This document shows positions 1,474 to 53,062 of a DNA stretch of 64,000 nucleotides, one piece after another; position 1 is the stretch's first letter, and each line of letters starts with the position of its first letter. Under the pieces are notes generated by a model that made no database searches, was not told where the DNA came from, and saw only the letters and a list, made by a program, of their open reading frames with translations. The DNA is from Centroscyllium fabricii (Eukaryota). Location: assembly GCA_051313645.2 (NCBI GenBank), contig JBNRSN020000017.1, forward strand, positions 63,674,001 to 63,738,000. Reading direction: 5' to 3'. A program made the position numbers and the translations under genes.

Positions 1474-1624
1474 CATGATGTGGAGATGCTGGTGTTGGAC
1501 TGGGGTGGACAAATGTAAGAAGTCACACCAGGTTATAGTCCGCTTTATTAGAAATCACAAGCTTTCGGAGCACTGCTCCTTTGTCAGGTGTTGGACTATA
1601 ACCTGGTGTTGTGACTTCTTACAT
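1474..1624 (-). mobile_element. Penelope-like fold-back insert, family A
   Basis: TSD ttggtttaaagc at 1462-1473 and 1625-1636; element end plus an inverted partial copy; hammerhead-like motif at 1555-1590 on the minus strand with a CTGACAA core mutation. Confidence 0.8.
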
Positions 1625-2234
1625 TTGGTTTAAAGCGTCATCCAAAGGGTGGCATATATGCCAATCCAGCACTTTGTCATTGTTGTACTGCGTAGCAACC
1701 TAGATTATCTGCATGGGACCTGGAGATTATTCCCACCATCTGACTTGAGTGAGTGTTAACAACTGAGCATAGTTGACTCTGTTGGCTATTTCCCCTTGAT
1801 TTTGGGCCATTTTGCTTGGCTTCTGAGCCCATTTTATCCCAGAGGTTTGACATTAAAAGCTGCTGCAGCAAGCTGAGAAGTCCTGGCAAGTTTTGGAAAT
1901 TAAACACTTTCTTAGAGCTCTGAGGAGAAAATTTAGATAACTTTAAATTTTAACACACAAGGAACATTTTGGGAAAAGTACTTTAGATCCAGACAAATCA
2001 GCTGGAGAAGTGGTGTTTCCTGCATACCACATCTGCTTGTGATAGTGAAGGTACAAGACATTTCCATACACATTCACACATTTAGGATGGCTTCATTTAT
2101 GTGAGCCCAGCAAAGGCAGATGCAGTTGTCGGGAGCCCCCACCTGAGGATGGTAGGAGGTGTGATTGATCCATCCCCAGGTATGCAGAGCTGGGGGAGCA
2201 TCACATCACTTTACATATTTAGTTGAATAAAAGG

Positions 2235-2385
2235 GAAGTACTGCAGATGCTGGAAATCAAATCAAAACAAAAATGCTGAAAACACTCAGCAGGTCAGCTA
2301 GCTTTTGTCAGGTCGATGACTTTTTTGTCAGATCTGTAAGAAGGTCATCGACCTGAAATGCAAGTTTCTCTCTCCACAGATGACT
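2235..2385. mobile_element. Penelope-like fold-back insert, family B (degenerate)
   Basis: tactgcagatgctggaaatc end; inverted caggtcgatgac / gtcatcgacctgaaa hammerhead stem II remnants. Confidence 0.65.
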
Positions 2386-2520
2386 AGCTACAGGTAAACT
2401 GATCGTAAGGAACATGGGCTATGCTTATGGGTGTGATCAGTAATGCTGAACCAGAAAGAATATTTAATGCAGACTAAAAGATTTGTAGTGCCTACCAAGA
2501 GCAATATTTCAATTAAGCCA

Positions 2521-2657
2521 AATGCAAGAAGTCACACAACACCAGGTTATAACAGTTTTATTTGAACTGATTTCAAATAAAACTGTTGGACTATAACCTG
2601 GTGTTGTGTGACTTCTTGCATTTGTCCACCCCAGTCCAACACCGGCACCTCCACATG
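2521..2657 (+). mobile_element. Penelope-like fold-back insert, family A (truncated before the ribozyme)
   Basis: TSD tcaattaagcca at 2509-2520 and 2658-2669; inverted arms. Confidence 0.8.
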
Positions 2658-3169
2658 TCAATTAAGCCAAACACAGCCATTCTGTTTTTTCTATAACCAC
2701 TGGTTTTGGATTAGGTATGGTGGCACAACTTTGCCACTTCATTTGTATTATCCAGTGGCCATTAATGCTATGCTTAAGTAAACTTTAGTTCTGAGAAGTT
2801 GGTACAATTACTAATTGCCAGCAATAGATTTCTGGCTTGCACACTGATTAACAGCCAAGATCTATTCTTGATTAGATTAAATTAAATGCGTTGGTATGAA
2901 TCAGATATTTGTATATACTGGTGCTTGTGCCAAAAAATTCAGTCTGGTTTCTTGACCTTATTTGGGAAAGGTTGTCTAAATTACCTAGGAGTATTTGGAA
3001 TGTGTGAAGTACAGGTCAAGCATTTCACTCTGCACCAAGTGTAGAGCTTTTTTTTTGTGTGGGCACGTGCTGAAATGCTGGATTTTGCTGTAGCAGCAAA
3101 GTCATTTTATTCATTGTTTGAAGCGCTGCATTTATGCAGAAAGATGGCAGTGTGCGAAGTCTTGGCTTG

Positions 3170-4165
3170 GTGGTCAAGGACTAGTGGATTGGTGCTGGGG
3201 CCTCGACTATTTACAATCTGCATTAATGACTTGGATGAAGGGACAGCGTGTAATGTAGCCAAGTTTGCGGATGATCCAAAAATGGGTGGGAAAGCAAGTT
3301 GTGAGGAGAACTCAAGAACCTGCAAAGGGATATAGACCGGCAAAGTGAGTGGGCAAACATTCGGCAGATGGAGTATAATGTGGGAAAGTGAGAGGTTATA
3401 CACTTTGGCAGGAAAAATAAAAAAGCAAACTATTTAAATGGTGAGCGATTACAAAATGCTACAGTTCAGAGGGACCTGGGGGTCCTTGTGCATGAAACAC
3501 AAAGTCAGCATGCAGGTGCAGCAGGTAAGCCAAAAGGCAAATGGAATGTTGGCCTTTATTTCAAAGGGGTTGGAGTATAAAAGCAGGGAATTCCTGCTAC
3601 AACTACAAAGTATTGGTGAGACCACACCTTGAGTACTGCGTAAAGATTTGGTCTCATTTTAAGGAAGGATATACTTGCATTGGAGGCGGTTCAGAGACAA
3701 TCCACTCCGTTGATTCCTGAGATGAGGGGCTTGACTTATGAGGAAAGGTTGAGCAGGCTGGGCCTATATGCATTGGAATTTAGAAGAGTGAGAGGTGATC
3801 TAATTGAAGCATAAGATACTGAGGGGGCTCGACAGTGTAGATGCAGAGAGGATGTTTCCCCTCGTGGGAAAATCTAGAACTTGGGCATAGTTTCAGAATA
3901 AAGGGTCGCCCTTTTAGAACTGATGAGGAGGAATTTCTTCTGCGGGTTGTAAATCTGTGAAATTCTCTGCCCCAGAGAGCTGTGGAGGCTGGGTCATTAA
4001 ATACATTTAAACTGGAGATCGACACATTTTTGCAAGATAAGGGAGTGAAGGGTTATGGGGAGTGGGTGGGGAAGTGGCTTTGAGCCGGAGATCAGCCATG
4101 ATCTTATTGAATGGCGGAGCAGGCTCAAGGGGCCTATTCATGCTCCTATTTCTTATGTTCTTATG
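3170..4165 (+). mobile_element. CR1-clade LINE 3' fragment (decayed RT, tcctgctcct-type tail)
   Basis: GLVLGPRLFTICINDLDEG...KFADD RT motif with frameshifts; 3' UTR gatcagccatgatcttattgaatggcggagcagg. Confidence 0.9.
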
Positions 4166-5507
4166 ACTCGCTTGGGGGCAGGGGGGAGGGGGGAGGGGGG
4201 GGGGGGCGTGGCAGTAGTTGGTAATTGCGTAGATAATTTAATATACAACTGATGACCCCAAAATTCAAATGAGGCAAACGTTCATGGGTGCGTGACTCCA
4301 GTTGGGCAGGACTGATTTATTTACTGGCTTGCTATTTCAATAATTCCTTGAGTCTTTATACCATGTGATTTTTTTTTCTCTCAAATGTTCCAGAAAGTAG
4401 ATGGTATTTTAATTTCCTCAGCTATGTGATGTTGAGGTTCTTTGTGCCCAGAGCAGAAATGATTAGAGACAGAAAAAAAGTAGGTTTAAAAAAACAACTG
4501 CCTGTGGTTTTTAATGAGGTAATGTGGTGCTGCAAGCAGTATTATTGAAGATTCTGCTGCTCGGTATGAGGCATTAATTCTACATCCAGTCCAAATTTCA
4601 CTAGTGAAGATTCGATTGCCTTAAGTGTCTTCCAAAGAGCTGGCTGTTATCGATCACTATATGCCAGAGCTGACTGGTGCCAATGCAATTGGGTCCAACT
4701 GCTCTGGAAGTAGCTGGTGTAGAATACTATTGGATATCTGGCCAATGCCATCTTACAGAAGCAGGAGGTAGACATTGGGAATAGCAAAAGTTGCTCTGAG
4801 TGTATCCAATATTGCAACAACACAAATTAAATGCCTAAATTTGTCCCTTAACTGCTGGTACTAAGCATTTAACACTTGTTTTACATTGATCCAAGAAATG
4901 GATTTTCTTATATTTGAGGCAAGCACAGTGCATTAGCATGCTGTCCTCTCTCTACTAGAACCTGGTTTTAATTCCAACCCAGGGTGATGGGAATTGGTAT
5001 TTCTGTTTAGCTCTTGTATTTTCTTATCATATCTTTCTATCCCTTCCCAATCACTTTTTTCCCCTCTTTCCCCTCCTTCCCCCCCCCCCCCCCCCCTCCC
5101 CAATTGCTGACACACAATATTTTGCTGAGGGTTTGATTCAGTGGGCACTGGGTATCATTATTTATGTAGCACCTTGAAGCAGTGTCAGCAGAATATTGCA
5201 CCCCTGGGGACATAACAGCAAAACTAACTCCTGTTCTTGCCGAGCTCCCATAGATGCATCCAGTACAGATTCCTACAAAAATTCTATTTCTGGTCACACT
5301 TTTTCCAATTCTATTGAGGCCAGTTGTAACATCTTGATCACCCTGAGTTAGGATAAGCTAACTTGAGACTGGGGTTGGACCTGGGATCTTTTGAATCACT
5401 AGCTCATCTACCTACTGGATTGAATGGAGGAGTCACTCTTGGGTTAGCTCTAAGGGAAGTGAGTTTAGGCAGACTTAGCCCAATTCCGATAATTGGACCA
5501 ACTGTGC

Positions 5508-5878
5508 GAAACATAGGAGCAGGATTCGGCCCTTCAAGCCTGCTCCGCCATTCAATGAGATCATGGCTGATCATCCAAACCCAGTACCCTGTCCCTGCCT
5601 TGTCCCCATATCCCTCAATCCCTATCGAGCCTGCACCGACACATATCCCACCCTTTCCCCGCAACCCCACACATTTAATCCCCCTAACACTAAGGGTCAA
5701 TTTATCCTGGCCAATTAACCTAACCTGCACATCATTGGACTGTGGGAGGAAACCGGAGCACCCGGAGGAAACCCACGGGGAGAATGTGCAAACTCCACAC
5801 ATAGTACCCGAGGCTGGATTTGAACCCGGGTCTCCAGTGCTGTGAGGCAGCAGTGCTAACCACTATGCCACCGTGCGA
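5508..5878 (-). mobile_element. V-SINE (HE1-like) with an alternative CR1 tail
   Basis: tRNA head gcacggtggcatagtggttagcactgctgcctcacag...gggttcaaatcc; V-domain gtgggtttcctccgggtgctccggtttcctcccacagtcc; tail matches the LINE end at 20884-21005. Confidence 0.88.
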
Positions 5879-6131
5879 CCAAATTTTGGCACTCATTGAC
5901 ATCACTAAACTCAAGTGGCTGCTGTGGAAATGGAAACAATTTTTTCGACTAGTACATCAATGTTAGAATTGAAATTTAATGTGTTCTGGATCATTGAAAG
6001 TTCAAAATTTTTGTGTATTATGACTCCTTTTAGTAATCAAGCACCAATTTACAACAGGGAAGATTAAATTTAAAAAAAATAAAAAAATTTAATCTGTCCG
6101 TTCATGATAATCATGGTGATCTGAAGACCAT

Positions 6132-6762
6132 GGCCTGTATTTTGCGGCCTCAATGGCCACGCAAGTTCTGGATTTTCACGTGCGAAGTGCATGCGTGAAA
6201 ACCCAGAACTCCCAATCGTACAAGAATCTTCACGGATCCAACACATCCCCGGGAGAAGGACCTCCACGGGTGGAGATTTGCCTAGCGAATGCCTGTAAAA
6301 GTTGTACACCTGGTAAGGTGTGGCGTATGGCCTGCTTTTACCAGCGTAAGAGTTTAAATGAACATTGACATTTTTCTGTTCATTTGAAATTTTTATTTAA
6401 GCATTTAAAAACCTATACAATAAGATAAGGTTATTTTTAGCCCCTTTAAAATATTAATTCAAAAAATTTAATGTGTTAAATTTAAATAGCATTTTAATTG
6501 ATTTAAACTTTTTAATTTGATGTGTACAGGTAATTTTTGGGATATTCCCATTCATTGCTTAGGGCATCCCCATAAGCATGAATGGGGATTCCCTTTCATT
6601 CATTGGGCCGCCCCATGTTATCCTAGATGCTTGCGAACGTTGGCCTCTACCCGCAGGTACTTGGAGAGGTCCAGGACGCGCGAGTCTCTGGGCACGCGGG
6701 CAATTTATTTGCGGGTCGGAGGCACTTCCCCGCAGGAAGCCTCTGGCTACAAATTCAGGGCC
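6132..6762. mobile_element. MITE, probably PIF/Harbinger-like
   Basis: Imperfect TIRs ggcctgtattttgcggcc / ggctacaaattcagggcc; CpG-rich ends and AT-rich core. Confidence 0.6.
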
Positions 6763-6876
6763 AATGTTCTTTTTCTGTACCTGGTTGTAGAGCTGGTGTG
6801 ACAGTTTGATTTCAATACTGTGAATTCTTTACCAACTTGCATGATTATAAATAGGTGATTTTGTTTTAGTTTCATA

Positions 6877-7772
6877 GGGCGCAAAATTGGTGCCTTAGCG
6901 CTGAAAAATGGGCGCTACAGGTTTTAGCGCCGGGCGCTACCAATTTAGGGCCGTGCCCAAAATTCACCCAGTGATTAGCGCCGGCGCTAACTGTTAGCAC
7001 GTGCTAATTTGCGATCGGCAATCGTCGTGCATATCCGGGTGCAACGCCTGCCCACTGGGCTGTGCCTGAAAATCGCCTTTGCGCCAGCCCCCTGGTGCAG
7101 CACTGCCAGCGCCAGCTTTGGCAAGCGTTGCTGAGGGTCTGAGTGGCTGCTGCAGTGCTGCTAAAAGGGCGACCCTCCCTTTCATCAGTAGCCTCTTCGG
7201 CCAGATGCTGAGGGAGGCGAGTCAGCCCGAGATCGGGCAGCTGCTGAGGGGGGGGTCAGGCGGCCCGAGTTCGGCCAGATGCTGAAGGGGGTTTGGGCGG
7301 CCCGAGATCGGCCAGATGCTGAAGGGGGTTTGGGCGGCCCGAGATCGGCCAGATGCTGAAGGGGGTTTGGGCGGCCCGAGATCGGCCAGATGCCGAGAGG
7401 GGTCGGGTGGCCTGAGATCGGGGAGATGATGATCGGGGTCGGGCGAGATCGGGAAGATGCTGAGGGGGGTTGGCAGAGATCGGGGAGATGATGAGGGAGG
7501 GGTGCTGACACATCATGCACTGCTTCCCCTACCCCCTTTAAGACCTTTCCGGCTCCAGAATTCATGGGAAAGCAAGGAGCTGTTGAAGGAGCGCTGCGCC
7601 CGTGATCGGCAATTAGCGCCACGAAATTGGGCGTTTGCACCTGTGCAATGCTAGATTTAGTGCTAAAATCTGCAAGGCTGGCGCTGAAGCGAATATTGGG
7701 TGCTCCGGCGCTAATTTTAGCATTGCGCCCATTTTAGCGCCCCAAATCGTGCGCTCACCAATTTTTGCGCCC
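6877..7772. mobile_element. PIF/Harbinger-like MITE with an internal minisatellite
   Basis: TIR gggcgcaaaattggtg / caccaatttttgcgccc, 3-bp TSD ATA, many subterminal TAGCGCC/GGCGCTA motifs; related to 61235-62314. Confidence 0.8.
7195..7500. repeat. 37-bp GC-rich minisatellite
   Basis: The unit cggcccgagatcggccagatgctgaagggggtttggg recurs at 7261, 7298, 7335 and 7372, with degenerate flanking units. Confidence 0.92.
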
Positions 7773-8337
7773 ATAGTTTATCCTTATCACGATTTAAGTT
7801 TATCTTTATTAAGTTTTCCAAGTGAATCATTATTTTAGTGCTGTATTCAGTAACTTCAAACACCAGGAGATGAAAATAAGCAGAATCTTAAACATTTTCT
7901 TTTGTGGAACAAAATTGTGACTTTGCCAAGAGTTGATGCATTGACTTTATTAAAATCTTTGATACTGCATTTTCCTAATTCTATTGGCTTAATCGACCCT
8001 TTGCATTGGTGACTTGCCCAACTTCTGGATATGTTGAGTGTCAAATCTACAAAGATTCCTAGGTCTGGTTCAACTTTAACCATAACTCTTTTAATACCCT
8101 TCACAGTATGTGTTGCCTCTATTTTCATTCCCATCCGCAGTTCTTTATTTGCCTGAATTAAATTCACCTGCCATTGTTCTATCCATCCAGTTACATATAT
8201 TTGCCCTGGCTAGTATTCTCTAACCAAGATTTTTCTGCCATGTTCTGTGACTCAAAACTATTTACTTTATATTGGAACTTTATATTGGAACTTTTTATTT
8301 CCTTTCTTATTCTCATTAGCATGCACTTGTTTATATT

Positions 8338-9053
8338 CGTCCGGATTTTCCGATGGCCCCCGAGGCCAAACGTGTGAGTATGGAGCAGGTACTCATGCGT
8401 GTGGCCCTCAGAAGTGATGGTTCTGTGCGTGCACCGAGCATGTGCACAGAACCTGGGGGGGGTCAAAAGCTGGAGCGCGTTGGCCTGCGCACCAGGAGGT
8501 GCGCAGTGCACCCGATTTTTTGATTTTTTTTGCAAGTTTTTTATCTGGGTAAATATCGGAAATGTTATGGCTGAAAATATCAGCCGCAACGACTCATTTT
8601 TAGCAGAAGTCTCTATTTTATACAATTTATGTATTTCTTTCACAAGTTTTTTATTTTTAATTAATTTTTTAGCCCAGTTAAAAACAAATATTTTTTCAAA
8701 TTTTATTTTTTGTTTAAAATAGGTAATTTATGTTAGTAATGTTAAAAAATGTGGTTTTAAAAAATATATATATTTTCTTGTTTAGTGTGGTTTTTGGGGC
8801 TGTTGCATTTCATAACTTTGACAGATGTCTGTCAAAGTTATGAATGGAGGATCCTTGGCAGTGATTGGCTCCCCGCAAACCACGTGGTCCCGCGCGGAGC
8901 TTCCCCACTAACTATGACATTGAGTTGCCTCAGCGCGGCGCTTCGAGCAGGCCAGAAAATCAGGATTTCAAATCCCAGAAGAGGACAATGGCAGGTGCGC
9001 TCCGTAAGTGTAGGTTGGAGGCTTGCACCTGCGGCGAGGCTAATCTTTGGGCC
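8338..9053. mobile_element. Harbinger-like MITE related (inverted) to 57956-58646
   Basis: Shared segment gattggctccccgc..accacgtggtcccgcgcggagc and gcaggtgcgctccgtaagt; ends ...tttgggcc. Confidence 0.7.
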
Positions 9054-10687
9054 AATTAAATGCCATTTGCCACTCTTCAGCCCAACATCTCCAGATCCCA
9101 TTATATTTGGTTTAGCTATTTCAAATTTGTCTTGAAAACCTTTTCCCAATTTGGTGCCCTCTGCAAACCTAAGACGGGATATTTTTATTCCTGCCCCAAG
9201 GTTCCAGCTCATTCCTGTACACCATAAACAGCAGTGATTCCTCACCATGTTAACCCAACTCCATTCACAACCACACCTTTTCTTCTCTGACCCAGCTTAT
9301 TTTCAGTCCATTCCAGAACCTTCCCCTCTATTCCATGCCTTCCTCATTTTGAGGACTAATCACTTGCATGGCACAATGTCAAAAGCTTTGCAAAAACTCT
9401 ATCTCCTGGCATCCTATAAATATATCGCCCACGAATAATTTTTTATGTGGAAACCATCACCTAAAGCTGTCCTGCATCGCAGCCAACAACGTTGACATGT
9501 AAAAAAAAATTGGCAATCTCATTCATGTCTAACATTAAACACCTTTTTATTTAAAAAAAGAAAAAAATCCCTATCCTGTTTGACTGCAGTTTCACACTAC
9601 ATAGAGCTGCCAGGCTGCTGAATTTAATGGTGTGCTCCACAAATGCACGATTCTTTCACTTAACATTTCAAAACTTTCTATGTAATTTCACCAAAGGAAC
9701 AAAATCAAGTTAACCTCTTGAAGTAAGGAAAGAACAGTGACTTTTTTTGAAGCCTTTACTGGAGGAAAAAAAGTTCTCGTGCAAATTGCACAGATTTCAC
9801 CATTTGACTTCTGCCTTGTTGCAAACATTCTCAACTTTAAACTGAACATTTACTTTGAGAGCTGTTGTATAAAAGTGTTCTTTCGGAGCGGGGTGTGGAG
9901 GGGGGGGCAATTTCTTGGCCCCGTTCAAGTGCTATTCCCCCCTCTCCCATCATGCAGTTTTTTACATACCAATGTTTTCATGCAAGTTATGCTGTGTATA
10001 AATGTACTACATTACAGTTTCTTAAAGAACCCACCACATGTGAATGCCTGTGCACCAGTGGTTTAAAATCAGCCAGAACCTACTTGATTCTGTTGTGAAG
10101 CTGAATCCTAAATTGAAGTTTTTGCATTGCCATTTTCACAATTAGCAGCCTACTAATGTTTCAGCCTTGTGTGGGTGTGGATTCCCTATTGTGGAGGGGA
10201 GTGATAACGATTGAATGCTCGGTTACTGTCCTGGTACAGTACAACATTGATGGCCTCTTTGGTGTTTCAAATGATTGAACTTCAACTGCTGGTCAGATGT
10301 GAATCCTAAATTGGCAGACTATCCATTTGAGAATTACCAACACGTGTGGCAGTTTGTTTCTAATCCACTTGAGCTCTGGTTACAATTTGTGTGACTGCAT
10401 CATCAGCATGTGCTTGGCTTTTCTGTAGTTTCTATTTGGAATCGTGTCTTAAATCTGACCACATTGTGTCAAAATAGGATTCCTGCCTCCTTGAGCAATG
10501 TTTTTTGAATACAGGGGCTGACTCAGATAATATTTTGTAAATGACAATCTCCATTACAATTCAGGTCACAGCAGTCTATTCTATAGCACACACTTTAAAC
10601 TTATGATGTGGAGGTGTTGGACTGGGGTGGACAAATGTAAGAAGTCTCACAACATCAGGTCATATAGTCCAACAGCTTTATTAGAAA

Positions 10688-10724
10688 TCACAAGCTTTCG
10701 GAGCGCTGCTCCTTCATCAGGTGA
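10688..10724 (-). ncRNA. Minimal type I hammerhead ribozyme motif
   Basis: Minus strand reads TCAC-CTGATGA-A-GGAGC(AGC)GCTCC-GAAA-GCTT-GTGA. Confidence 0.75.
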
Positions 10725-10871
10725 AGTGAAGAGGTGCAAAAATAGAACACTGCCAGATGATTACAGGTAATCTTTCCAACTGCCCTTTATCACACGGCAG
10801 AGAGGTCATCACAGCATCATCTGGCAGTGTTCCCTGACTATATATGCTGTGCCTATATGCATCTCTTCACT

Positions 10872-10908
10872 TCACCTGACGAAGGAGCAGCGCTCCGAAA
10901 GCTTGTGA
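10872..10908 (+). ncRNA. Minimal type I hammerhead ribozyme motif
   Basis: TCAC-CTGACGA-A-GGAGC(AGC)GCTCC-GAAA-GCTT-GTGA: stem I TCAC/GTGA, intact core, 5-bp stem II, palindromic AAGCTT in place of stem III. Confidence 0.75.
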
Positions 10909-11149
10909 TTTCAAATAAAGCTGTTTGACTATAACTTGGTGGTGTGACTTCTTACTTTAAACTTACTTCAAACTCAGACAGCTTCTGAATAATGAAATGA
11001 CACTTGCATGTACCATGTGTTTTGCTAACCTGGATTGTGTGAATGTGCCACCTAAAATACAGCTCCACAAAAGGGACATAACCTTCCAATGCACTAATAT
11101 TTTATTTAAACTTTGTTTGAAATGTACAACTGAGTAGAAAATGCCAAAT

Positions 11150-11392
11150 ATCTCTTCCCTTCCCTGCCTTCCAGCCTGTTGCTGATCTTTCCTTTGTTCT
11201 TTCAGCCCACTCCCCCTTTCCCCAGCCCCCCAAGCTTTAAAATCTATCCCCTCTCCTGGTTTCTCCAGCTCTGAAAGGTCATCGACCTGAAACGTTAACT
11301 CCGTTTCTCTCTCCACCGATGCTGCCTGGCCTGCTGAGTTTCTCCAGCGTTTTCTGTTTCAGATTTCCAGCATCCGCAGTATTTTGCTATCA
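11150..11392 (+). mobile_element. Penelope-like 3' end, family B
   Basis: Pyrimidine-rich tract, then ctgaaAGGTC(ATC)GACCT-GAAA-CGTT-aact (hammerhead with a core deletion), ending gatttccagcatccgcagtattttg. Confidence 0.7.
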
Positions 11393-11594
11393 GAAAATGC
11401 TGAATTTTTGCCATGTAAATATTGTGCTGATTGTGACTTATCCATTACCAGGCACGGAATAGTGGATATGGCAAAGTACGATGACCTCCATGGTCTTCCA
11501 AAAGTAGTTGAAATCTAGATTATCTAATTGATGCCAGCCCAGCTCCTCCTCCCCTGAAGTCTATGCAAATAGATGTATAATTGAAGTTGCACTT

Positions 11595-11733
11595 CACCAG
11601 GTTATAGTCCAACAGTTTTATTTGAAATCTCAAGCTTTCACAAGATTTCAAATAAAGCTGTTGGACTATAACCTGGTGTTGTGACTTCTTACATTTGTCC
11701 ACCCCAGTCCAACACCGGCACCTCCCCATCTTG
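11595..11733 (+). mobile_element. Penelope-like fold-back insert, family A (short)
   Basis: Inverted caccaggttatagtccaacag arms plus the gtccaccccagtccaacaccggcacctcc tail. Confidence 0.8.
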
Positions 11734-12354
11734 AATGAGGTTGCCATGGATTGGCTGTTGTCAGCTTGTGAATAACTTTATGGCTTTCCTTAGACTTTTG
11801 TTTCTTTCCAAATCTTTAGTGAAAGAATAGTTTGTAAAAGGAGCTGAAGGGTAGTGGCAGCAGTTGCTGGAGGAAAAGGTTGCAGGAGTGTGAAGTATGT
11901 ACTGGTCAGCTGCTCAAGGGTGTAGAGGACCTCCTTGCATTTTGTTTCTTTTTTAAAATCTTATCAAGTTGTCTTAAACATTTGAAAACTACATATCCCC
12001 CTCACAATTGTTATCAACTCCAGAATAACTCCCTACTGTCTGCTGATCTTCCCTTGGCACTAATTGAAGAACAGTCAGGAAGCTGTGTCTTGGCCAACAT
12101 TTATCCTTCAAAAAACATCACCCCGGGCGGCGGGGGGAGAAAACCCAGATTAACTTGCCAATTATCTAATTGCTGTTTGGGCCTTGCTGTCTGCATGTTG
12201 GCTGTTGTTTGCCAACAAAATAATAACTGCACCTCAAAAGAAAGTAATTGGTTGCAGACAATAGTAATCAGTGGAGAGCTGTTCCAAATTTCTAAACTGC
12301 ACTGTTCACATTTTGCTAGGCATCCAGTGTCCAGTCTGAAATGCTGTTTTTTTT

Positions 12355-12560
12355 TTTTATATGGGATGTGGGTGTCGCTGGCAAAGCCAGCATTTATTGC
12401 CCATCCCTAATTGCCCTTGAGAAGGTGGTGGTGAGCCGCCGCCTTGAACCACTGCAGTCTGTGCGGTGGAGGTATTCCCACAGTGTTAGGGAGGGAGTTC
12501 CAGGAGTTTGACCCAGCGACGATGAAGAAACCGTGATACTTCCAAGTCAGGATGGTGAGT
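12355..12560 (-). mobile_element. LINE 3' end (CR1-group, third tail type)
   Basis: Reverse complement matches 39600-39815; ends ...gacacccacatcccat + A-rich tail. Confidence 0.7.
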
Positions 12561-12739
12561 CTATTGGCAATGGCAATGCAAAAGTTGTTCTATTGCTCAA
12601 AGTCTCTTCTCCCTCAGCTACTTCCAATTTAGGACAAAACACTTCTTAAATGTATTTAATACCTGTGAAGACCGAATATGTTGAACCTGGAAAATGTTGG
12701 GATTTATATGAAGTACCCTTGCATGTTTGGGACCAAGCT

Positions 12740-13049
12740 GGCACGGTGGCATAGTGGTTAGCACTGTTGCCTCACAGCACTAGAGACCCGGGTTCAAATT
12801 CGACCTCGGGTGACTATCTGTGTGGAGTTTGCACATTCTGTGTCTGCGTGGGTTTCCTCCGGGTGCTCCGGTTTCCTCCCACAGTCCAAAGATGTGTGTG
12901 TTAGGTTGATTGGTCATGATAAATTGGCCCTTAGTGTTAGGGGGATTGAATATGAGGTTATGGGGATAGGGTGGGATATGTCGGTGCAGGCTCGATGGGC
13001 CGAAATGGCCTCTATCTGCACTGTAGGGATTCTATGATTCTTCTATGAT
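12740..13049 (+). mobile_element. V-SINE (HE1-like), full length
   Basis: tRNA head with A/B boxes, V-domain, tail gggccgaaatggcctctatctgcactgtagggattctatga. Confidence 0.88.
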
Positions 13050-14267
13050 CAGATAATCTTTGACACTGGGAATTTAAAAAAAACCTTTAGAAATGGGCTG
13101 GTGCTAGTAGTATCAATAATCCATTTAGTATAGCATACTAGTTATCCTAGGACACTGAGGGAAAGGAACTTGTATTTTTGTAATCTATTGGTTTAGCTGG
13201 TTGAACAAACATGAAGTGACAATTCAGTAGAGTAAGTTCACTGACTTGTAAAGTAATATAAAACACAGTAAAGGGAAAAGTGAAGGGTAAAGGGAAACTT
13301 AAGGTTTCTTTTTATTAATTGTCATGCCAATAACATTTTAAATAGTGGGTCATCTGCTTTCAATGATGACACAATTTCCTTGCAGCAAAGGGGCTGTGTT
13401 AGCTCCCAAGTGATGTATTGATGGCTATTAATAGTTGTATGGGAAGTAATTGTCCTGCACCTATAATGTTCTCAATGGTTTCAACAAAACATGAAATAAT
13501 TGTTGAAGGATATGTTGATGGCGTAAAGTGGGAGAAGGCTCATGTGGAGCATTAACACTGCCATAGATCTGTTGGGCCCAATGGCCTTTCTCTGTGTTGT
13601 CAAATTCTGTGTCATTGTTAAAGCATAGATGACTTACTCAAAAAGGTTTCACTGAACTGTTGGTCCAAAGCATTTAAACCATAAAATATATTTGTTTTAT
13701 AATGTGCACAAATTGCTTTCTTTATCCCCATCTGTGACCATGAATCTGTAAACATACCACAAATGAATCAGGGACTTTAGTCATTTGAAACATGTAAATG
13801 AGGAGCTCCTAACAATGATGGTGGATAAATATACCAATCGCATGTGGAACTGAGTCAAAAGACCAAAAGATCCAAGGTTCATCCTTGGTCTGTGCTGCAT
13901 TACCTGAGGTCAGACAGCAAAAGCAGTTGTAGTACAGTAACTGGTTTTGGCATCTTTATTGAGCTGGGATGGGGGGGGTGGGGTGGCTAAGATCAACCAG
14001 GGTTCCTGCCACTGGGCTTCTTGCAAAGATGCCATTTTTTCATCCTCTGCACTGACTTTCCTCAATCTCAGTGCTGTGACTCTTAATCTCTGGGATATTA
14101 ATGATGTCAATTCGCCTTGCCCAGACTCCCCAGTTTCATTTTCATCCGAAACCTTTCCTGCCATATAACCCAGCCACCCCCTTGACATGCAGCCTATGAA
14201 AACCTCTGCCCATTGTGGATATGTCAGGAATTTGAAAGGTGCTGCCAATCTACCCTCAATTATAATA

Positions 14268-14700
14268 CAGGTTGAACACTGGTAATCCGGCACCTGATGG
14301 TCCGGCAGCTTCAGCGGTCCAGCACGATTGGAAACTGGCGCTCTTCATTTTGTGGAGCAGCCGCTCGGCGGTGCCGCCATTTCCCACGAAGAGTGAGTGA
14401 GCGCCTCGGGCGTTTGTTTTTTTTTTAGGCTGTTCTTTTTTTTTTAAATGCAAGAAGTCACAACACCAGGTTATAGTCCAACAGTTTTATTTTAAATCGT
14501 CAGTTTTTTTTTAGTTTGTGTTCTGTCCCCGGGCTCCCTCCTGGGGAGTGTTCTACCTGCGCGCACCGGGCCCTGGGGCGTGTTCTACCGCGCGCTCCCC
14601 CCCCCCCCCCCCCCCCCCCCCCGAACCTTGTGGTTTGGAATTTTCAGTGATCTGGTACCGGCCTGGTCCCGAGGGTGCCGGATTAACAGTGCTCAACCTG
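14268..14700. mobile_element. Tc1/mariner-Tigger-like MITE containing a family A fragment (about 14447-14497)
   Basis: TA TSD; 27-bp TIR caggttga(a/g)cactg(g/t)taatccggcacc. Confidence 0.85.
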
Positions 14701-15327
14701 TAGTGTGTACGTAATTGGATGGGGTATTGGCCTTTGCTTCCATTTTGTTTCCAAATTTGGATGAATTCCTAGACCTGTTTGAATAAACCAGGTATTTGAG
14801 GCATAATCATGTTCGGAATCGGCACACAAGGCCACATGTCCTCCTGGAATTGCATGCTGCAATACACATGCTAGTTTACTAGCAAGCAACCTACTTGTTC
14901 TTTACACCTCTCAACTTTAACAATACCCATATTATTTCCTCTTGGGACACTTAAACTCTGGCAAACGATGAGTTTTGAAATTGCATTTGTAGTTAATTTT
15001 AGTTTCTTTCATCAGACTGTTCTACTTTATATACTTTATCAGATTGAGACATTTTTGCTCAGTCTTGGTCGTCTTCCAATATCTGCGGCCATGGTAAAAG
15101 AGGGCAGATGGAAAGGAGTATGTTTTCATTTGAGATCACTGTTGGCTAATGCTTCTGAATTTCAAAAATGTCAGCAAGTAACACTCGTGCCTGAGGAAAC
15201 TATTGTACAGGTTTCAACGTTTAATCTTGTGCTAATTGGTTTGGGTAAAGTTTGGAATCGAGCGTTTTACCATGTTGACTCCAATGTTTGCATTCAAAGA
15301 TGTTGTGCACGGTACTTTTTTGCACTA

Positions 15328-15774
15328 CAGGTTGAGCACCGTTAATCCGTTACCCGAAAAACCGGCAGCTTCGAACGTCCGGCAATTTCCCCGGCTGCGC
15401 CGCGCATGCGCAAAATGGCCACCGCGATTGATGCTTCGGCGAATGATCTGCGCATGTGCCGCCGAACAGCAAGCGCATGCGCAGGTCATTCACAATGGTC
15501 TCTCCGAGCCGATAGCGGGCTGGGCCGGGACTCCCCAAACGCGGGCTGGGCCGGGATTCCCCGAACGCGGGCCGGGACCATCCGAACGATGCTGGGCCAG
15601 GACTCTTCAAACGATAAGCGCATGCGCAGACAACTCTAACTGGCCGCCGGCCTTTCGCGGCGACCATTTTGAATGGTCTGCGCATGCCCTCTCCGAAGCT
15701 TCAATCGTTCGGGATTTTCACTTTCCCAGCACGGGCCTGGTCCTGCCCGTGCTGGATTAACGGTGCTCAACCTG
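15328..15774. mobile_element. Tigger-like MITE, CpG-rich
   Basis: TA TSD; perfect 21-bp TIR caggttgagcaccgttaatcc. Confidence 0.88.
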
Positions 15775-16257
15775 TACTTGCATCAATACAGGAAATCCTT
15801 TTGATTACCTCATCCAAGGCTCCAGTATTTTGGACTGTAGTGATTTGGAGAGCAGCTTTACATGAGCTTTCCAATTAGATTTTAGAATTGAATACATGGA
15901 CACTCTTTTTAATCCTTTTTGATGCTCATACTTGATAAGCAGTTTTGGAGGCAATGATATTGGAGAACTTGTGGTAATGGATCTAGTTCAGAGCTTTCTA
16001 AACTGCAGCCTGTGGTCCAGTTTCTAGCCTTCAAGGACTAGCAGTCTGGCTCACTTAAGCCCAGGTAACTCACTACTTTTCGTTTTGCAGTGGATAATAA
16101 CGGCCAACTGACAGCGTTCAGTCATTACCCCTCTGAAACTGACCAGGATTTAGCGCATGTGCATCTAAATGCGGAAATCCTGACATTACGGTCGGTCATT
16201 CATTGCTCCGACATGGGCTGTGCTATGGACACCCCGCCCACCCCATAGCCGGCAATC

Positions 16258-16960
16258 AATTCAATTCAATTCAAATTGCTTTATTGGCATGACAAGATAC
16301 AACAAAGCACAGAAAAAGAACATATACAGTTGGACATACAAATGCATAACCAGACGTATTGAATGAATAACTATGCATACACATACACATAAAAACCTGC
16401 ATATAGATCTAAAAACATATACAATTGGACATACAAATGCATAAACAGACGTATTGGATGAATAGCTATGCAAACACATACATATATACCCGCATATAGA
16501 TCTTGTATGCTCTTCCTAGCTTCAATGGTCACTGGTTCTCCCTCTGCTTATGGCAAGCTGTGACCTAGTTTGCCGCTAATTTTATGCAGTCCCTCTGTTC
16601 CCCCAATAGATATGGGAGTTTTTGGTGGTCGTTCAAATTTTGGGAAGAAATTTCCCCTTATTCCCTGATAGTTTTTGCAAGTTGTGAGGAAGTGCAGCTC
16701 TGTCTCCACCACTCCCTGACTGCAGTGGGAGCACAGCCTTTCCTCTCTGGGCAGCCAAGTCTTTCTGTGCCTTTTTCGATGGCTAGGCTGTGCTCGCTAA
16801 GTCTGTACATGTCAGGGTTTTTCTCAGTTTGCTATCTTTCACCATGGTCAGGTAATCAGCCATGGTGTACTGTCTGTTTAGGGCCAAATAACAATCTAGT
16901 TTGTTTTGGGTTTTTGTCATTTCTGTCCAGTAATTCAAGTATTTTTCTTTTTGTTTAGTA
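16258..16960 (-). mobile_element. RTE-X-like LINE 3' fragment
   Basis: Minus strand reads MYRLSEHSLAIEK..TWLPREERLCSHCSQGVVETELHFLTTC (CCHC knuckle); tail gtcatgccaataaagcaattt followed by gaatt repeats; ~95-bp tandem duplication in the 3' UTR at 16321-16503. Confidence 0.75.
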
Positions 16961-17121
16961 ATAATTGTGTTGGGTCGGATTCTGAGTGCTAGGATGTCAA
17001 TGAATCCAATGGAACCGATGGAAACTGAACATTTTCATGCTAATATCTCTGTTAAATATCCCATTAAATGTTAAGCATTGTAGAAATAGGTGTAACTGGG
17101 GTTTTAATAGCCTGAACAGAG

Positions 17122-17590
17122 GGTGACTCGCTTCCATATTAAAAATGAGTTCTCAGGTGACCGATGAGTCCAATGTGGGACCTACAGTCTTTGTCCATGA
17201 GGGTCCTGACGTTCCAGGTCCCAGACTTAATTTTAAAGGGTGGAAGATGCCTGTGCGTGAATTCTTTTACCGTGGGGTGGGAGTTGCACACCAGCTACCA
17301 CACGGGCTTGACAGAGCAAGGTCTTGGTCCAATGGCAAGGGGATCCAAGACGATTGGAGACCAGGCTCTGCTACATCGGCCTAGCGTGCACAAACATACT
17401 CCTACTGTCCTCCTCCCTCCTTCCCGCAGGTCCTCTCTGACTGGGTTTCATAGGATGCATTGTGGTCCTCCTGACCTCTCTGTTGGCCTGTGCCGCACCT
17501 TCCCTGTGCCCCGACCCCGCTGCGCCACTCCTGGGCCTTGACCTCACTGCTGGGCTTGTCCTTGGTCCTGGCCTCGGACATGAATGATGT
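17122..17590 (-). mobile_element. Internally deleted RTE-clade element (5' end fused to 3' end)
   Basis: Minus strand reads GTWNVRTLMD (endonuclease N-terminus) joined directly to KDCRSHIGLIGHLRTHF* (RTE C-terminus). Confidence 0.75.
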
Positions 17591-17910
17591 CTCTCTCTCA
17601 GGATCCAATTTCACATTTTTAATAGCATATTGCCTGCTAAACTACCATTTTGGCCCTGAAAACTAATTTTTATATTTGTGGAATGTCAAATGTCTCCAAT
17701 ATGATGAATTGCTTTTTTTAAAAAAAACATTAAGTTATTATTTTTATAAGCTCTAGACGATAAAGGTGCCACATTTCCTAGGAAGTCTATTTAACGTGCC
17801 TGACCTTTTGAAAGGACATGCTTGAGACCAGGAACGTCGCGTACAGGCAAAGTTAATGTAACAATAGACCTTGACAACAGTGACTTAATTTTTTTTTTTT
17901 CTCTTTTCAG

Positions 17911-17938
17911 ACCGTGAGGATCAGTCAATTCTTTGCAC
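17911..17938 (+). CDS. MYH10: MYH10 exon, 28 nt, (D)REDQSILC(T)
   Basis: Polypyrimidine tract + ttcag acceptor, gtaagt donor; the translation is the myosin II motif preceding the P-loop and is phase-compatible with the next exon. Confidence 0.96.
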
Positions 17939-18893
17939 GTAAGTACATATTTTATTTGAATGATGTTTTAAAAATTTGCTGCGTACCAACTATAGCTAGA
18001 TGAAGAGCATCTATTGATGGATATTATTATAAGGGGTGAAAAATAACACTTCATTTTGAATGCTTGTGTGCGCCAAAGGCGAAAATTAGTAATGGTGAAT
18101 ACTGCTATTCATTAAGTTTGCGTTGATTCTCGGGTATTGGTGTAACGTATCCAGGTTTTGCTGCTGATAAAAAGCTAGATAGGAAAGTCAGATGTGAGGA
18201 GGACGCAAAGAGGCTGCAGAGAGATATAGACGGTTGGCTGGGCAAGAACATGGCAAATGGAATAAAATGTGGGCAAGTGTGAATTATTCCACTTTGGTAG
18301 GAAAAACAAAAAAGCAGAATATGTTTTGAATGGTGAGCCTGGGAAATGTTTGCACTCGAGGAACCTGGGCGTCCTTGTACATGAATCACAAAGTTAACAC
18401 GCAGGTACAGCAAGCAATTAGGAAAGCAAGTGGTATGTTGGCTTTTGTTACAAAGGGATAAGAGTAAAGAAGTCTTACTGCAATTATACAGGGCATTGGT
18501 GAGGCCACACCTGGAGTACTGTGTACAGTTCTGGTCTCATTACCGAAGGAAAGACGTACTTGAGAGAGTGTAGCGAAGGTTGACTAGGCTGGTTCCTGGG
18601 ATGATGGTTCCTGGGATGACGGGATTGCCCTATGAGGAGAGATTGAGTAGACTAGGCCTCTATTCATTAGAGTTTAGAAGAATGAGAGGTGATCTAATTG
18701 AAACATATAAAAATTTTAAGTGACTTGACAGGGAAAGGTTTTCCCTGGCTGGGGAATCTAGAACACTGGGTCACAGTCGGAGAATAAGGGGTAGTCCATT
18801 TAGGACAGATAAATTTCTTCATTCGAAAGGGTTGTTAATGTTTGAGCATCCACAGCGCGCTCGTAGAGAAATCCAGTCATTGAGTATATTCAA

Positions 18894-19299
18894 ATGCAAA
18901 AAGTCACAACACCAGGTTTTAAAGTCCAACGTTTTATTTTAAATCACAAGCTTTCGGAGCTTTTGCCCCTTTGTCAGGTGAAAGAGAAACTAAAGTCAAA
19001 GATCACACACATGGGGGAGGGGAGAAATTTGATCCCATACATCCAACCCTAGAGCACACAAGCATATTAGCATACCTTATGCTAGTATGCTAATATGCTT
19101 GTGTGCTCTAGGGTTGGATGTATGGGATCAAATTTCTCCCCTCCCCCATGTGTGTGATCTTTGACTTTAGTTTCTCTTTCACCTGACGAAGGGGCAAAAG
19201 CTCCGAAAGCTTGTGATTTAAAATAAAACGTTGGACTTTAAACCTGGTGTTGTGTGACTTTTTGCATTTGTCCACCCCAGTCCAATACCGGCACCTCCG
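18894..19299 (+). mobile_element. Penelope-like fold-back insert, family A, ~185-bp near-perfect palindrome
   Basis: TSD cattgagtatattcaa at 18878-18893 and 19300-19315; arms about 18892-19075 and 19085-19269 with a 9-nt loop. Confidence 0.9.
19179..19216 (+). ncRNA. Minimal type I hammerhead ribozyme motif
   Basis: TCAC-CTGACGA-A-GGGGC(AAAA)GCTCC-GAAA-GCTT-GTGA; stem II kept through a G-U pair and a different loop relative to the 10872 copy. Confidence 0.75.
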
Positions 19300-20883
19300 C
19301 ATTGAGTATATTCAAGACAGAGGTTGATAAATGTTTGGAAACAAAGGGAATTAAAGAACATGGTAGTGCGGGAAGGTGGAGCTGAGGTAGACGATTAACC
19401 ATGATCTTGTAGAATGGCGGAGCAGGCTCAAAGGGTCAAATGGCCGACTCTAGCTCCAATTTCATATGTTCAATTGATTTTAACTTTCGGTGCCAGGTAA
19501 AGAATTTTCTTGGTGCTTTAAAGGTTTATTCATAGTCCATTCCTGTAAACTGTGGGGAATGACATTGTTTATATCTCGGGGGTATTTGACTAAACTCAAA
19601 TTATTCTAAGCTAGCTTCTATTGGGCCACATTTGAAAGGTCATGCCTTCAAAAGAACATTCTTGCATTGGATGGGGTTCAGAGAAGCGAGCGAAGGATGA
19701 TTCGAAGATTTGGGGGACTCATTATGAAGAGAAACGAGGAGATAAACCTGATTGAGGGTGTGATATGATCTCTATTAAATGTTGAAGTGTCAATGTGGAC
19801 AAGTTGTTTTAGAATGCGAGCACAGAACTAGAGATGGGTTTAAAATTACCAAGCCCCACTAAAGATTAGAAGACATTGTTTTTGACCTTTTCCTCTTGCT
19901 CCTCTCCCCACCACCACCAAACAAGGTAATGGATATGTGGCACTGGCTCCCAGTAAAAGCTGCTGTTGTTGATTAAAGCAATCTAAAAGTGTTGTCCGTG
20001 TCCAGGATTGAATAATGATGGTGAATTAATATCCTAGACTTTGATGGATTGCCTTTTTAGGGGTCCGAGTGTATAATTGTAGATTTTTGTGAAGAGATTG
20101 CTCCTTGAATCCATGATCAAGTAAGATTGTACATGGTTGGTGGCAGGAAGAGGCTTTTGTTTGAATAACCTTTCCTCATTGCATGCTCGTGTTATAAAAC
20201 ATGACCAAGACACTTACTTTCGAGTTTGAAAAAGCTTCAGATTGGCTGTGATTATAATAGGTTGTGCAGGGCACCATTTGTGATTTAAGATACTTTGCAA
20301 CTTCCTGAATCATCTAAATGAGTGTGGGGGGGAACGGTACTTCCTGAAGTTTCATTTTAATTTGTCAAACTTTTTTTTAGGTGAATGTAGTTATGAAATT
20401 CTTTATATAATAAAATACCACAAAAATTAGTTCATACAGTTTAGGCTTTTGGATCTGTTTTTTATTCATCTAATCCATCCCATGTTCCTATTTTTGCAGG
20501 CGATCAACTAACATTTACTATTTTTGCTTTCAAGATTACTTCAGAAAAAGTTGAATTCATGCTTTACTTCTGCTTTATATGAAGAAAGTTATCTGAATTA
20601 CTTCTAATAATGGCCTGCCACAGATTGGAGGGAGCTTCACCTCGCATTTATTTTCATTTAATGCACCAACTGTGAGAGGGCAGGCTTGCAATGAGCAAGT
20701 CCTGATGGTGACCAGTCTTGTTGTCAGTCTTTTAAAATAACCCATTCATGTACTCAAATGCATGCCCAGAGCTGTAGCCTGAAACCAAGTGTGTCTCTTC
20801 AGCTGGGAACCAAGAGGGGTTAAAATTCAACTCGGCAAGAGCACCAAACCAGTGGTAGTGGATTAGGCAGCAGGGTTTATACC

Positions 20884-22692
20884 ATAGAAACATAGAAGAT
20901 AGGAGCAGGAGTAGGCTATTCGGCCCCTCGAGCCTGCTCTGCCATTTAATGAGATCGTGGCTGATCATCCAAACTCAGTACCCTGTCCCTGCCTTCTCCC
21001 CATATCCTGTGATCCCTTTAGCCTCAAGAAATATATCCAACTTGTTCTTGAATATATTTAATGATCTGGCCTCCACCGCCCTCTGGCAGAGAATTCCACA
21101 GGTGCACCATTCTCTGGGTGAAGAAATTCCTCCTCATCTGTCCTAAATGGCTTAACCCTTAGACTATGATCCCTGGTTCTGGACTCCCCGGCCATCGGGA
21201 ACATCCTTCCTACATCTAGTCTGTCCAGTCCTGTTAGAATTTTATAAGTTTCAATGAGATCCCCTCATTCTTCTAAACTCCAGTGAGTATAAGCCCAATC
21301 GACCCAATCTCTCTCTCTCTCCTCGTACATCATTCCTGCCACCCAGGTATCAACCTGGTGAATCTTGCTCCCTCCATGGCAAGAACATCCTTCCTCAGAT
21401 AAGGCGACCAAAATTGCACACAATGCCCGAGGTGCGGTCTCACCAAGGCCCTGTGCAGCTGCAGCAAGACATCCTTGTTCCTGTACTCTTAACTCTTTTG
21501 CCACGAAGGCCAACATACCATTTGCCTCCTTAATCGCCTGCTGCACCTGCATGCTTACCTTCAGCGACTGGTGCACAAGGACACCCAGGTCTCATTGCAC
21601 TTTGCTTTCTCCCAATCTATTGCCCTTGAAATAGTAATCTGCCTTCCTGTTTTTGACACCAAAGTGGATAACCCCACATTAAATGCATTTGCCATGTTTC
21701 TGCCAATAATCACCCAGCCTGTCCAAATCGTACTGGAGTTTCACAACATCCTTCTCACAGAATACCCTCCCACCCAGCTTTGTCGTCTACAAATTTGTAG
21801 ATACTACATCCAATTCCCTCGTCCAGATCATTAATATATATTGGCCCAGAAATTGCAGTGGAGCCTTCGTGCGGGTGCAGAACCTGCTTAACGCACTTTA
21901 ATTGCCCATATTCAGTTTTGCTTTTTTGCACTGAGAAATTCCCATTAGCCCAGCCTGTCAGAGCTCCATGCGAGTTTCATGGGCATCTGAAGGGTGTAAT
22001 TAGTGCGAGGTGGCTTTTGAGACCACGTGAATGGAAGCAATTCTCCGTTCAAAACTTCCAGAGAAATCTGTGCGAGTTTTGAAGAGATTCCCAAAAGACA
22101 TCTAAACACAAAAATAAAATTTTACAAACACCACATTTTTTTAATATTACCCCAACTAACACAAATAACCTATTAAAGAAAAAATAAAAATTTGCAGAAA
22201 TTTTTTTCTACTTCCAACAGGTCTAAAAAAATACTTACCTGTCTTTAAAGTTATCAACAATTAAAAACCTGAAAAAACAATTAAAATTAATACAATACGC
22301 ACTTACCAGATAAAAACAGGTGTTTACGACTCCTATTTTCCAGCGTTGAATTTTCTGCTCTTGGTCCATAGAAAAACTTTAAAAAAATATCGGAATGACT
22401 GGATAATCCCGTAGTTCGCTGCTTCCTGCGCTGGACCTCTCAGGAAGCAGCGACCCCCCCCCCAGGCTGGGCGGCACAGGAAAACCCGAAGCGTGCGCTC
22501 CGGCTGCTTCCTGCGGGTTTAAGCTCTGGTGCGTCGCACCAGAGCTTAAACCCGATATGTGCTGACTGCAATTTCTGGACCATTGTGAATAGCTGGGGTC
22601 CTAGGACCGATCCTTGCGGTACTGCCTGCCACTCGGAAAACGACCCATTTATTCCAACTGTTTGCTTTCCATCTGCCAACCAGTTCTCTATC
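20884..22692 (-). mobile_element. CR1-clade LINE fragment split by a MITE at 21843-22581
   Basis: Minus-strand RT remnants (VPQGSVLGPQLFT) and 3' UTR with tctatgtt-type tail repeats. Confidence 0.88.
21843..22581. mobile_element. PIF/Harbinger-like MITE, 739 bp
   Basis: TIR ggcccagaaattgcagt / actgcaatttctggacc; 3-bp TSD ATT; clean insertion into a LINE; inverted sister copy at 30223-30967. Confidence 0.88.
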
Positions 22693-23540: not shown

Positions 23541-23837
23541 TAATAATAATAATAATACAACTTTATTGTCATTATACAATGTACAAGTACATGAACAACG
23601 AAATGTGATCTTGCAAGCTCCCAAGAGTCCAGCAAAGCCGCTGCGTCTGTGCGCGCCGCCATTCCATCTTTCCATCATTCCGACAATCTTCAGCCAACTG
23701 CCTCTCCCCGAGGCTCCTTTCATGACCTTCTGCACCTGGTATTCCCTGGAGGTCTCCCATCCAAGTACTAACCAGGCCTGGCTCTGCTTAGCTTCCAAGC
23801 CTTGCCAGTGGCCCTGTCCCTAGTCCCAGGAACAGGG
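23541..23837 (-). mobile_element. 5S rRNA-derived SINE (SINE3-type), copy 1
   Basis: Minus strand ggaagctaagcagagccaggcctggttagtacttggatgggagacc..gggaataccaggtgc matches the 5S internal promoter; tail atttcgttg...aatgacaataaagttg(tat)n. Confidence 0.88.

Positions 23838-27561: not shown

Positions 27562-27684
<123 letters not shown>

Positions 27685-43090: not shown

Positions 43091-43198
<108 letters not shown>

Positions 43199-52852: not shown

Positions 52853-53062
<210 letters not shown>

Follow-up and report, generated by a model that had tools for sequence, protein, structure and literature searches.

What kind of mobile element left six short, related inserts in a 64,000-nucleotide stretch of the Centroscyllium fabricii genome (assembly GCA_051313645.2, contig JBNRSN020000017.1, positions 63,674,001 to 63,738,000 of the forward strand; hereafter the window), and could the hammerhead ribozyme motifs found in some of them still be at work? 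A first-pass annotation of the window had proposed that these inserts are truncated or non-autonomous, ribozyme-bearing Penelope-like insertions. It is concluded here, with a probability of roughly 85%, that they are dead, short insertions derived from the terminal repeat (pseudo-long terminal repeat, pLTR) of a Penelope-like element (PLE). Most likely, they represent very early-aborted insertions in which the complementary DNA (cDNA) folded back on itself. The class to which they belong is not new, publications having already covered its tails, its inverted copies and the minimal hammerheads of PLE terminal repeats. A sequence-level description of this particular family was not found in the literature, and repeat databases (Dfam, Repbase) may well hold one.

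The six inserts were found where the first-pass annotation had placed them. Searches with blastn and with a profile (nhmmer) returned the same 11 arms, with a combined cover of 1240 bases; in the nhmmer search of the 64 kb all 11 arms scored at E<=5e-11, the next match having E=0.69, and neither method detected a seventh copy in the window. Whole inserts range in size from 135 to 406 bp, and are distributed as follows:

1474-1624, minus strand: insert 1, a tailed sense arm on minus (1474-1590) and a short tail-less arm on plus (1589-1627)
2523-2657, plus strand: insert 2, a tail-less inverted arm, a 5-nt loop and a tailed arm (2568-2656)
10604-10953: insert 3, a tailed arm on minus and a tail-less arm on plus, with a 54-nt unpaired centre
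11583-11730, plus strand: insert 4 (the 11595 insert), a tail-less inverted arm, a 12-nt loop and a tailed arm (11644-11730)
14446-14498, minus strand: insert 5 (the 14447 insert), a solo tail-less 53-nt fragment inside a terminal inverted repeat (TIR) element at 14266-14702
18894-19299, plus strand: insert 6, a near-perfect fold-back with the tailed arm on plus

Five of the six are head-to-head fold-backs, in which the 3' ends of the arms face the target-site duplications (TSDs) and the truncated 5' ends meet centrally. The common architecture that had been claimed for these five is therefore present, while the claimed order, an inverted copy followed by the tailed one, holds for the 1474 and 10604 inserts only on the minus strand, where their tailed copy lies. 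The 5' end is different in every copy. Insert 2 has no ribozyme because its start lies 3' of the cleavage site; the tail-less inverted arm of insert 4 holds just the 3' half of the ribozyme, its left end being ambiguous (11583 or 11595); and insert 5 lacks a tail, a ribozyme and a credible TSD, the best repeat at its flanks being a T-run. The arms of insert 3 are the most diverged (8 of 121 columns differ, plus 5 indels). Those of insert 6 differ by 1 substitution in 184 columns and 2 small indels, private variants being common to both arms, and its 9-nt centre contains a 7-bp hairpin and a short duplication. The upstream parts of inserts 3 and 6 have no other match in the window, nor do they match each other: from stem I onward these two inserts, the longest of the six, can be aligned (local score 97), and upstream they cannot (score 16, reached by 193 of 1000 shuffles), a pattern suggesting either that the module is constrained in the master elements or that there are two subfamilies. 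An assembly artefact of the fold-back type was considered and rejected on account of the TSDs, the diverged arms and the one-sided tails.

Four of the inserts are flanked by exact TSDs of the 12 to 16 bp originally reported:

1462-1473 and 1625-1636: TSD of insert 1, 12 bp exact
2509-2522 and 2658-2671: TSD of insert 2, 14 bp exact
10592-10603 and 10954-10965: TSD of insert 3, 12 bp exact
18878-18893 and 19300-19315: TSD of insert 6, 16 bp exact

In a chance control, repeats of at least 12 bp appeared around 2 of 3000 random pseudo-inserts. The duplicated bases are AT-rich (40/54, or 74%, versus 57% in the window; binomial p=0.008). Insert 4 has no exact TSD, the best repeat around it being 5 bp; the segments 11576-11594 and 11731-11744 may form a degenerate TSD of 14 bp whose left copy has lost 3-4 nt, which, if real, would make the tail-less arm of insert 4 about 20 nt shorter than elsewhere.

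The two ends of the inserts are not alike. In all four TSD-bearing inserts the tail overhangs on one side only (39, 36, 35 and 32 nt), in agreement with the earlier estimate that the inverted copy stops some 30-45 nt short; insert 4 also carries the tail, with its left end ambiguous as mentioned. Two features of insert 2 illustrate this region:

2623-2656, plus strand: AC-rich tail, on one arm only (example copy)
2584-2592 with 2633-2641, plus strand: 9-bp sense-strand stem formed between body and tail, within which the tail-less end falls

This stem is fully or partly present in the other tailed arms too. At the four tail-less ends (4/4) the TSD prolongs the element by 3, 4, 2 and 3 nt (chance 1e-5 to 5e-4, by base composition), the final 3 nt of the tail-less arm of insert 1 being common with its TSD; annealing and priming by the second nicked strand at that point would be expected to leave such a trace. 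The longest tail end (1474-1476, minus strand) finishes in CATCATG, with an ATG at which the open reading frame (ORF) of the master may begin; a protein search with the frame open across the tail returned no candidate, a weak result given that only 29 of the 41 residues are element-derived.

The ribozyme motif was searched with our own descriptor of the minimal type I hammerhead, drawn from PMC4209133 (helix I, CUGANGA, an optional bulge, helix II with G10.1-C11.1, GAAA, the 15.2/16.2 palindrome, UH and helix I). The full descriptor has 3 strict matches in the window (C3 at 10876 on plus, 10720 on minus and 19183 on plus) and 0 in 150 Markov-shuffled windows searched on both strands. The motif is therefore real and not due to chance. 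By comparison, the loose CTGANGA..GAAA pattern has 13 matches versus a chance mean of 6.15 and, because just 3 of the 13 belong to this insert family, says little when taken alone. When position G8 was relaxed, two further arms were detected (C3 at 1587 and 18977, both on minus), each reading CUGACAA, that is, with a G8A transition at a CpG. The complete set is:

10688-10724, minus strand: hammerhead with intact core CUGAUGA, N17 at 10692
10872-10908, plus strand: hammerhead with intact core CUGACGA, predicted cut after 10904
19179-19216, plus strand: hammerhead with intact core, predicted cut after 19212
1556-1590, minus strand: hammerhead remnant with the G8A core change and a stem I of only 3 bp, C3 at 1587
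18944-18981, minus strand: hammerhead with the G8A core change, C3 at 18977

Hammerheads, which had been ascribed to the inserts as a family, are thus carried by three of the six (1474, 10604 and 18894; five arms, three of them intact) and not by the rest. The cleavage positions given in the first-pass annotation, after 10904 and 19212 (CUU), are correct, and a third intact core on the minus strand is to be added to them. Its description of stem I as TCAC fails for the 1474 insert, where only CAC is left to pair. It had also presented the hairpin as kept across variants: pairing is indeed kept, the variation consisting of a single A-U to G-U change, and none of 18 pairs (0/18) is altered on both sides.

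The motif has close counterparts among metazoan PLE hammerheads as described in PMC4209133, with which it has in common a 4-bp helix I, CUGANGA-H, a 5-bp helix II, GAAA and NUH. It fits the consensus given there, including the U-rich leader and the AU-rich trailer, and in that set position 17 is often a U. In Fig. S3 of the same paper, the UCAC/GUGA stem I recurs in the row for lamprey Poseidon, and G-C-U-U with the AAAUAAA trailer behind it recurs in the row for turtle; no cartilaginous fish is found among the rows of that figure covered here. Differences from the metazoan hammerheads of PMC4209133 are a helix II among the shortest of the range and an arrangement of the copies as fold-backs, not tandems. 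Just 5' of helix I on one arm of the 10604 insert (10838-10871, plus strand), a TATATAT is followed 21 nt later by TCACT, which resembles the TATA/initiator spacing described in a rotifer pLTR; this signal is weak, and absent from the other arm of the same insert and from the 18894 insert.

How well do these features define a PLE? The published signature of these elements comprises an inverted, 5'-truncated copy and a tail of 30-40 bp at one end (PMC8557442). In rotifer PLEs, TSDs flank inverted pLTRs, the tail is 31 bp, the TSDs are 8-10 bp and the pLTR measures 193-218 bp (PMC3846280); a 34-bp repeat has been reported in D. virilis (PMC2377424). In PLEs the hammerhead is of the minimal type I; a bulge precedes stem II, and it has G10.1-C11.1 and palindromic 15.2/16.2 positions (PMC4209133). 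The inserts resemble the endonuclease-containing (EN+) PLEs Penelope/Poseidon and Neptune in their head-to-head inverted 5'-truncated copy and one-end tail of 30-40 bp, as well as in their TSDs, palindromic junctions and AT-rich targets (PMC8557442, PMC3846280). They are also comparable to PAc, the Poseidon element of Anolis carolinensis, in which a hammerhead is followed by an AC-rich stem-loop, its two preferred ends bracketing the tail, and the targets are AT-rich (PMC11167929). This comparison is one of descriptions; unlike PAc, where the ORF starts at stem II, the inserts have a single core ATG, which runs into a stop at the cleavage site, and show no ORF. PLEs are reported in all the vertebrate genomes surveyed in PMC4350176, elephant shark included, and, as a further point in favour of the assignment, in whale shark introns (10.1101/443036).

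The first-pass reading of the inserts as Penelope-like is consequently supported. Since no ORF for reverse transcriptase (RT) or GIY-YIG could be linked to the inserts, the PLE assignment is a structural one. The earlier remark that no such coding is visible at the inserts agrees with our Pfam search, in which shorter or frameshifted coding remnants might have escaped. Several observations weigh against the PLE assignment. Pfam detected no GIY-YIG domain among 320 stop-to-stop ORFs of at least 60 amino acids plus 3 exons, and the only RT match (RVT_1, 35219-35707) belongs to an unrelated long interspersed nuclear element (LINE) 16 kb off. The inserts (135-406 bp, with no ORF) differ from EN+ PLEs in lacking a direct pLTR pair; no direct or partial-tandem pLTR was seen by blastn in the window or in any of the six inserts, which are too short to show it. 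The TSDs, at 12-16 bp, exceed the 8-10 bp of rotifer PLEs (PMC3846280). The sample consists of only five fold-backs. Rfam yielded no hammerhead match at E<=5 in the whole window or at E<=10 in two isolated arms, so that the search with hammerhead models suggested in the first-pass annotation came out negative; minimal hammerheads devoid of helix III may lie outside the reach of these models. Finally, the helices display no two-sided covariation: all 84 informative cells (84/84) pair, with 0 two-sided and 2 one-sided changes, in an alignment whose seven related rows give no power. The lack of a PLE ORF is, for its part, expected of truncated copies. Bacterial and archaeal genome contigs, scanned for exact 20-mers as possible carriers of host contamination, gave 0 matches.

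The next question is how the inverted arm arises. The origin of the inverted repeats and of the one-sided tail of PLEs is described as unresolved in PMC8557442, and self-priming on an antisense template has been proposed for PLE palindromic junctions (PMC3846280). When assayed in vitro, the protein of the Anolis element cuts AT-rich DNA and extends both strands, and its two start sites bracket the tail within the AC-rich stem-loop (PMC11167929). From the architecture, TSDs, microhomology and motif described above, together with the predicted sequestration of the ribozyme discussed below, we infer an enzyme, an order of events and any cleavage. A PLE RT/GIY-YIG protein encoded elsewhere would bind the stem-loop that lies 3' of the hammerhead in the RNA, and would nick AT-rich DNA with a stagger of 12-16 bp, one nick priming cDNA at the tail end. 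Synthesis would halt after only about 90-220 nt, whereupon the 3' end of the cDNA would fold back and copy itself, generating a head-to-head palindrome with a small loop. The other nicked strand would then anneal through 2-4 nt of microhomology at a CAT|TTG site, some 35 nt inside the tail end, and prime the opposite strand to produce the arm without tail, repair creating the TSD. The hammerhead would be a passenger from the master RNA, in which its activity probably depends on dimer formation or on the help of protein, and in the genomic copies it would decay, zipped up by the antisense arm.

The central step of this proposal, cDNA fold-back, is favoured by three observations. In three of the five fold-backs the two arms differ by no more than 12 nt in where they end (15 of 945 re-pairings are as good; 45 of 945 for the summed offset); the arms of the 18894 insert are nearly identical and matched within 1 nt after about 157 nt; and the centre of this insert holds the small hairpin and the duplication. 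Fold-back is accordingly given slightly better than even odds of being the principal way in which the inverted arm is made. A less probable though serious contender is priming on two templates, in which a PLE ribonucleoprotein, acting as a dimer, uses both nicks to prime cDNA and the truncated cDNAs are joined centrally, the templates being two RNAs or the two pLTRs of one tandem RNA, one per RT start site. Such a route is consistent with the Anolis PAc protein, which cleaves and extends both strands, is predicted to dimerize and has two starts that bracket the tail (PMC11167929), and the microhomology at the tail-less ends suits it equally well. It also gains from the facts that speak against a pure fold-back, namely the arm offsets of 45 nt in the 1474 insert and 71 nt in the 10604 insert (two of the five fold-backs), and the differences between the arms of the 10604 and 11595 inserts at sites that vary between inserts, one of the 10604 differences being common to the 1474 arm. 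Independent truncation of two cDNAs should, nevertheless, leave arm lengths uncorrelated, contrary to the matched ends just described, and the hairpin and duplication at the 18894 centre count against it as well. Both routes may operate.

A separate issue is the nature of the master elements. They could form a short non-autonomous family, like a short interspersed nuclear element (SINE) or a retrozyme, made of a hammerhead and an RT-binding stem-loop and mobilised by a PLE in trans. No ORF is seen, the 10604 and 18894 inserts are alike from stem I on and unlike upstream, as if a conserved module were joined to exchangeable upstream sequence, and non-autonomous elements derived from pLTRs have been described (bioRxiv 2026.07.22.740005; PMC3846280). 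With non-LTR retrozymes, reported in one chondrichthyan, the inserts share a non-coding nature, a type I hammerhead and a relationship to PLEs (PMC7229834; bioRxiv 2026.07.22.740005). Retrozymes are nonetheless defined by head-to-tail tandems, whereas the inserts are head-to-head and TSD-flanked, none of the six (0/6) being a tandem. Moreover, the 5' end differs from copy to copy as truncation predicts, the approximately 100 nt visible 5' of the ribozyme fit an ordinary pLTR (193-218 bp in rotifers), and two PLE subfamilies account for the upstream difference just as well. A short non-autonomous family of masters is therefore regarded as rather unlikely.

Read as PLE remnants, the inserts have value as material, in that both junctions, the centre and the TSD are kept within 135-406 bp. 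The microhomology at 4/4 tail-less ends and the matched arm lengths become predictions for a whole-genome count. A bolder extension, offered only tentatively and with the odds against it, is that the dominant product of PLE transposition in this lineage is a tiny self-silencing palindrome, a module of about 130 nt, composed of the hammerhead and the stem-loop that pairs with the tail, being the whole cis-element placed behind unrelated upstream sequences. If this were true, the thousands of copies expected genome-wide would record the second half of the PLE integration reaction, in which microhomology priming at the second nick would fix the tail-less end, and cDNA fold-back the centre.

Two other origins have very little left in their favour. 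Twin priming at the 3' ends of ordinary LINEs or SINEs would provide 5' truncation, inversion and LINE-like TSDs of 12-16 bp, and LINEs abound in the window; yet the inserts have neither a poly(A) nor a microsatellite tail, blastn reveals no similarity to the LINE copies of the window, and twin priming inverts a more 5' segment without duplicating the 3' end, all of which makes this origin very improbable. Slightly more remote still is a miniature inverted-repeat transposable element (MITE) or fold-back DNA transposon, which would share terminal inverted repeats, TSDs and the lack of coding capacity. In place of symmetric TIRs, a fixed TSD length and a shared interior, the inserts have ends asymmetric by 32-39 nt, TSDs varying from 12 to 16 bp and a centre of their own in each copy; the hammerhead would have no role in a DNA transposon, and a real TIR element of the window has symmetric 29-nt ends. 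A DNA transposon is thus largely refuted.

Can the genomic copies still cleave? It is predicted that they probably do not, because in most copies the motif is missing or its core broken, no copy is in tandem and the fold-back sequesters the rest. In equilibrium folding predictions, the probability of helix II is 0.91-0.94 in isolated arms and 0.0 both in whole inserts and in prefixes that end just past the cleavage site. The head-to-head layout implies that the antisense arm is made first in a transcript from either strand, and each insert has a single sense hammerhead copy per strand, with no tandem partner. Minimal hammerheads have been found to have no activity as monomers and low activity as dimers (PMC4209133), while that of the Anolis element required protein and was abolished by a G8C change, G8 being essential (PMC11167929). 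A hammerhead found in such a fold-back insert is, therefore, unlikely to be active.

The surroundings of the inserts are those of a myosin II heavy chain gene (17910-64000, plus strand). Pfam Myosin_head matches occur in plus-strand exons at 43091-43183, 52853-53062, 55586-55687, 56819-57088 and 63821-64000; a further AG/GT-bounded plus-strand exon lies near 27575-27670, and the most upstream one is

17910-17938, plus strand: AG/GT-bounded exon encoding DREDQSILC, myosin II gene context outside the element

Because of these plus-strand exons, all six inserts most likely lie in introns and belong to the plus-strand transcript of the gene, the exon 5' of the first five falling outside the window. 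With the myosin head as the part covered by our search, we take the gene to be non-muscle myosin IIB (MYH10-like). Two small exons of the same gene, near 31230-31261 (PESPKPVKHQ) and 37330-37352 (SGTSLLY), resemble the MYH10 alternative loop-1 inserts. The six inserts all lie within the first 19.3 kb, with zero in the other 44.7 kb (P ~0.007 under uniform placement, calculated post hoc). Co-option by the host as an intronic ribozyme or a microRNA-like hairpin regulating the myosin gene is highly improbable: despite the intronic location in a transcribed gene, the two intact cores on its sense strand (10876 and 19183) and the scores of the long hairpins on Rfam microRNA models, every such score is below the gathering threshold and reflects generic hairpins, two of the five cores are mutated at a CpG, a tandem partner for a dimer is missing and stem II is predicted at 0.0 in context.

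The window contains other repeats. The TIR element that hosts the solo fragment (14266-14702) has 29-nt inverted ends, and similar ends are found near 15327-15777. Three near-identical repeats of about 270 bp on the minus strand (about 23560-23830, 51800-52080 and 60610-60900), with a 5S rRNA-like head and an AT-rich tail, look like a 5S-derived SINE, their Rfam 5S matches being below threshold; they match the loose CTGANGA..GAAA pattern and fail the full hammerhead descriptor. A non-coding repeat of about 750 bp, which has terminal inverted repeats of its own and contains palindromes, is present as two inverted copies, about 90% alike, at 21839-22591 and 30213-30974, with related-looking elements near 8330-9050 and 57950-58650. 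A long degraded LINE (33196-36420, plus strand) comprises a GDSL/SGNH-like ORF1 (Pfam Lipase_GDSL_2) and the RVT_1 region, and 3' fragments of this type are numerous across the window. For the LINE ORF fragment at 29121-29792, which points to a cartilaginous fish as the probable host, the best named eukaryotic relatives among the 120 matches listed are in sharks, rays and skates (such as Stegostoma 68%, Hypanus 65% and Chiloscyllium 60%), turtles in the same list having about 50-54% and birds mostly 43-52%.

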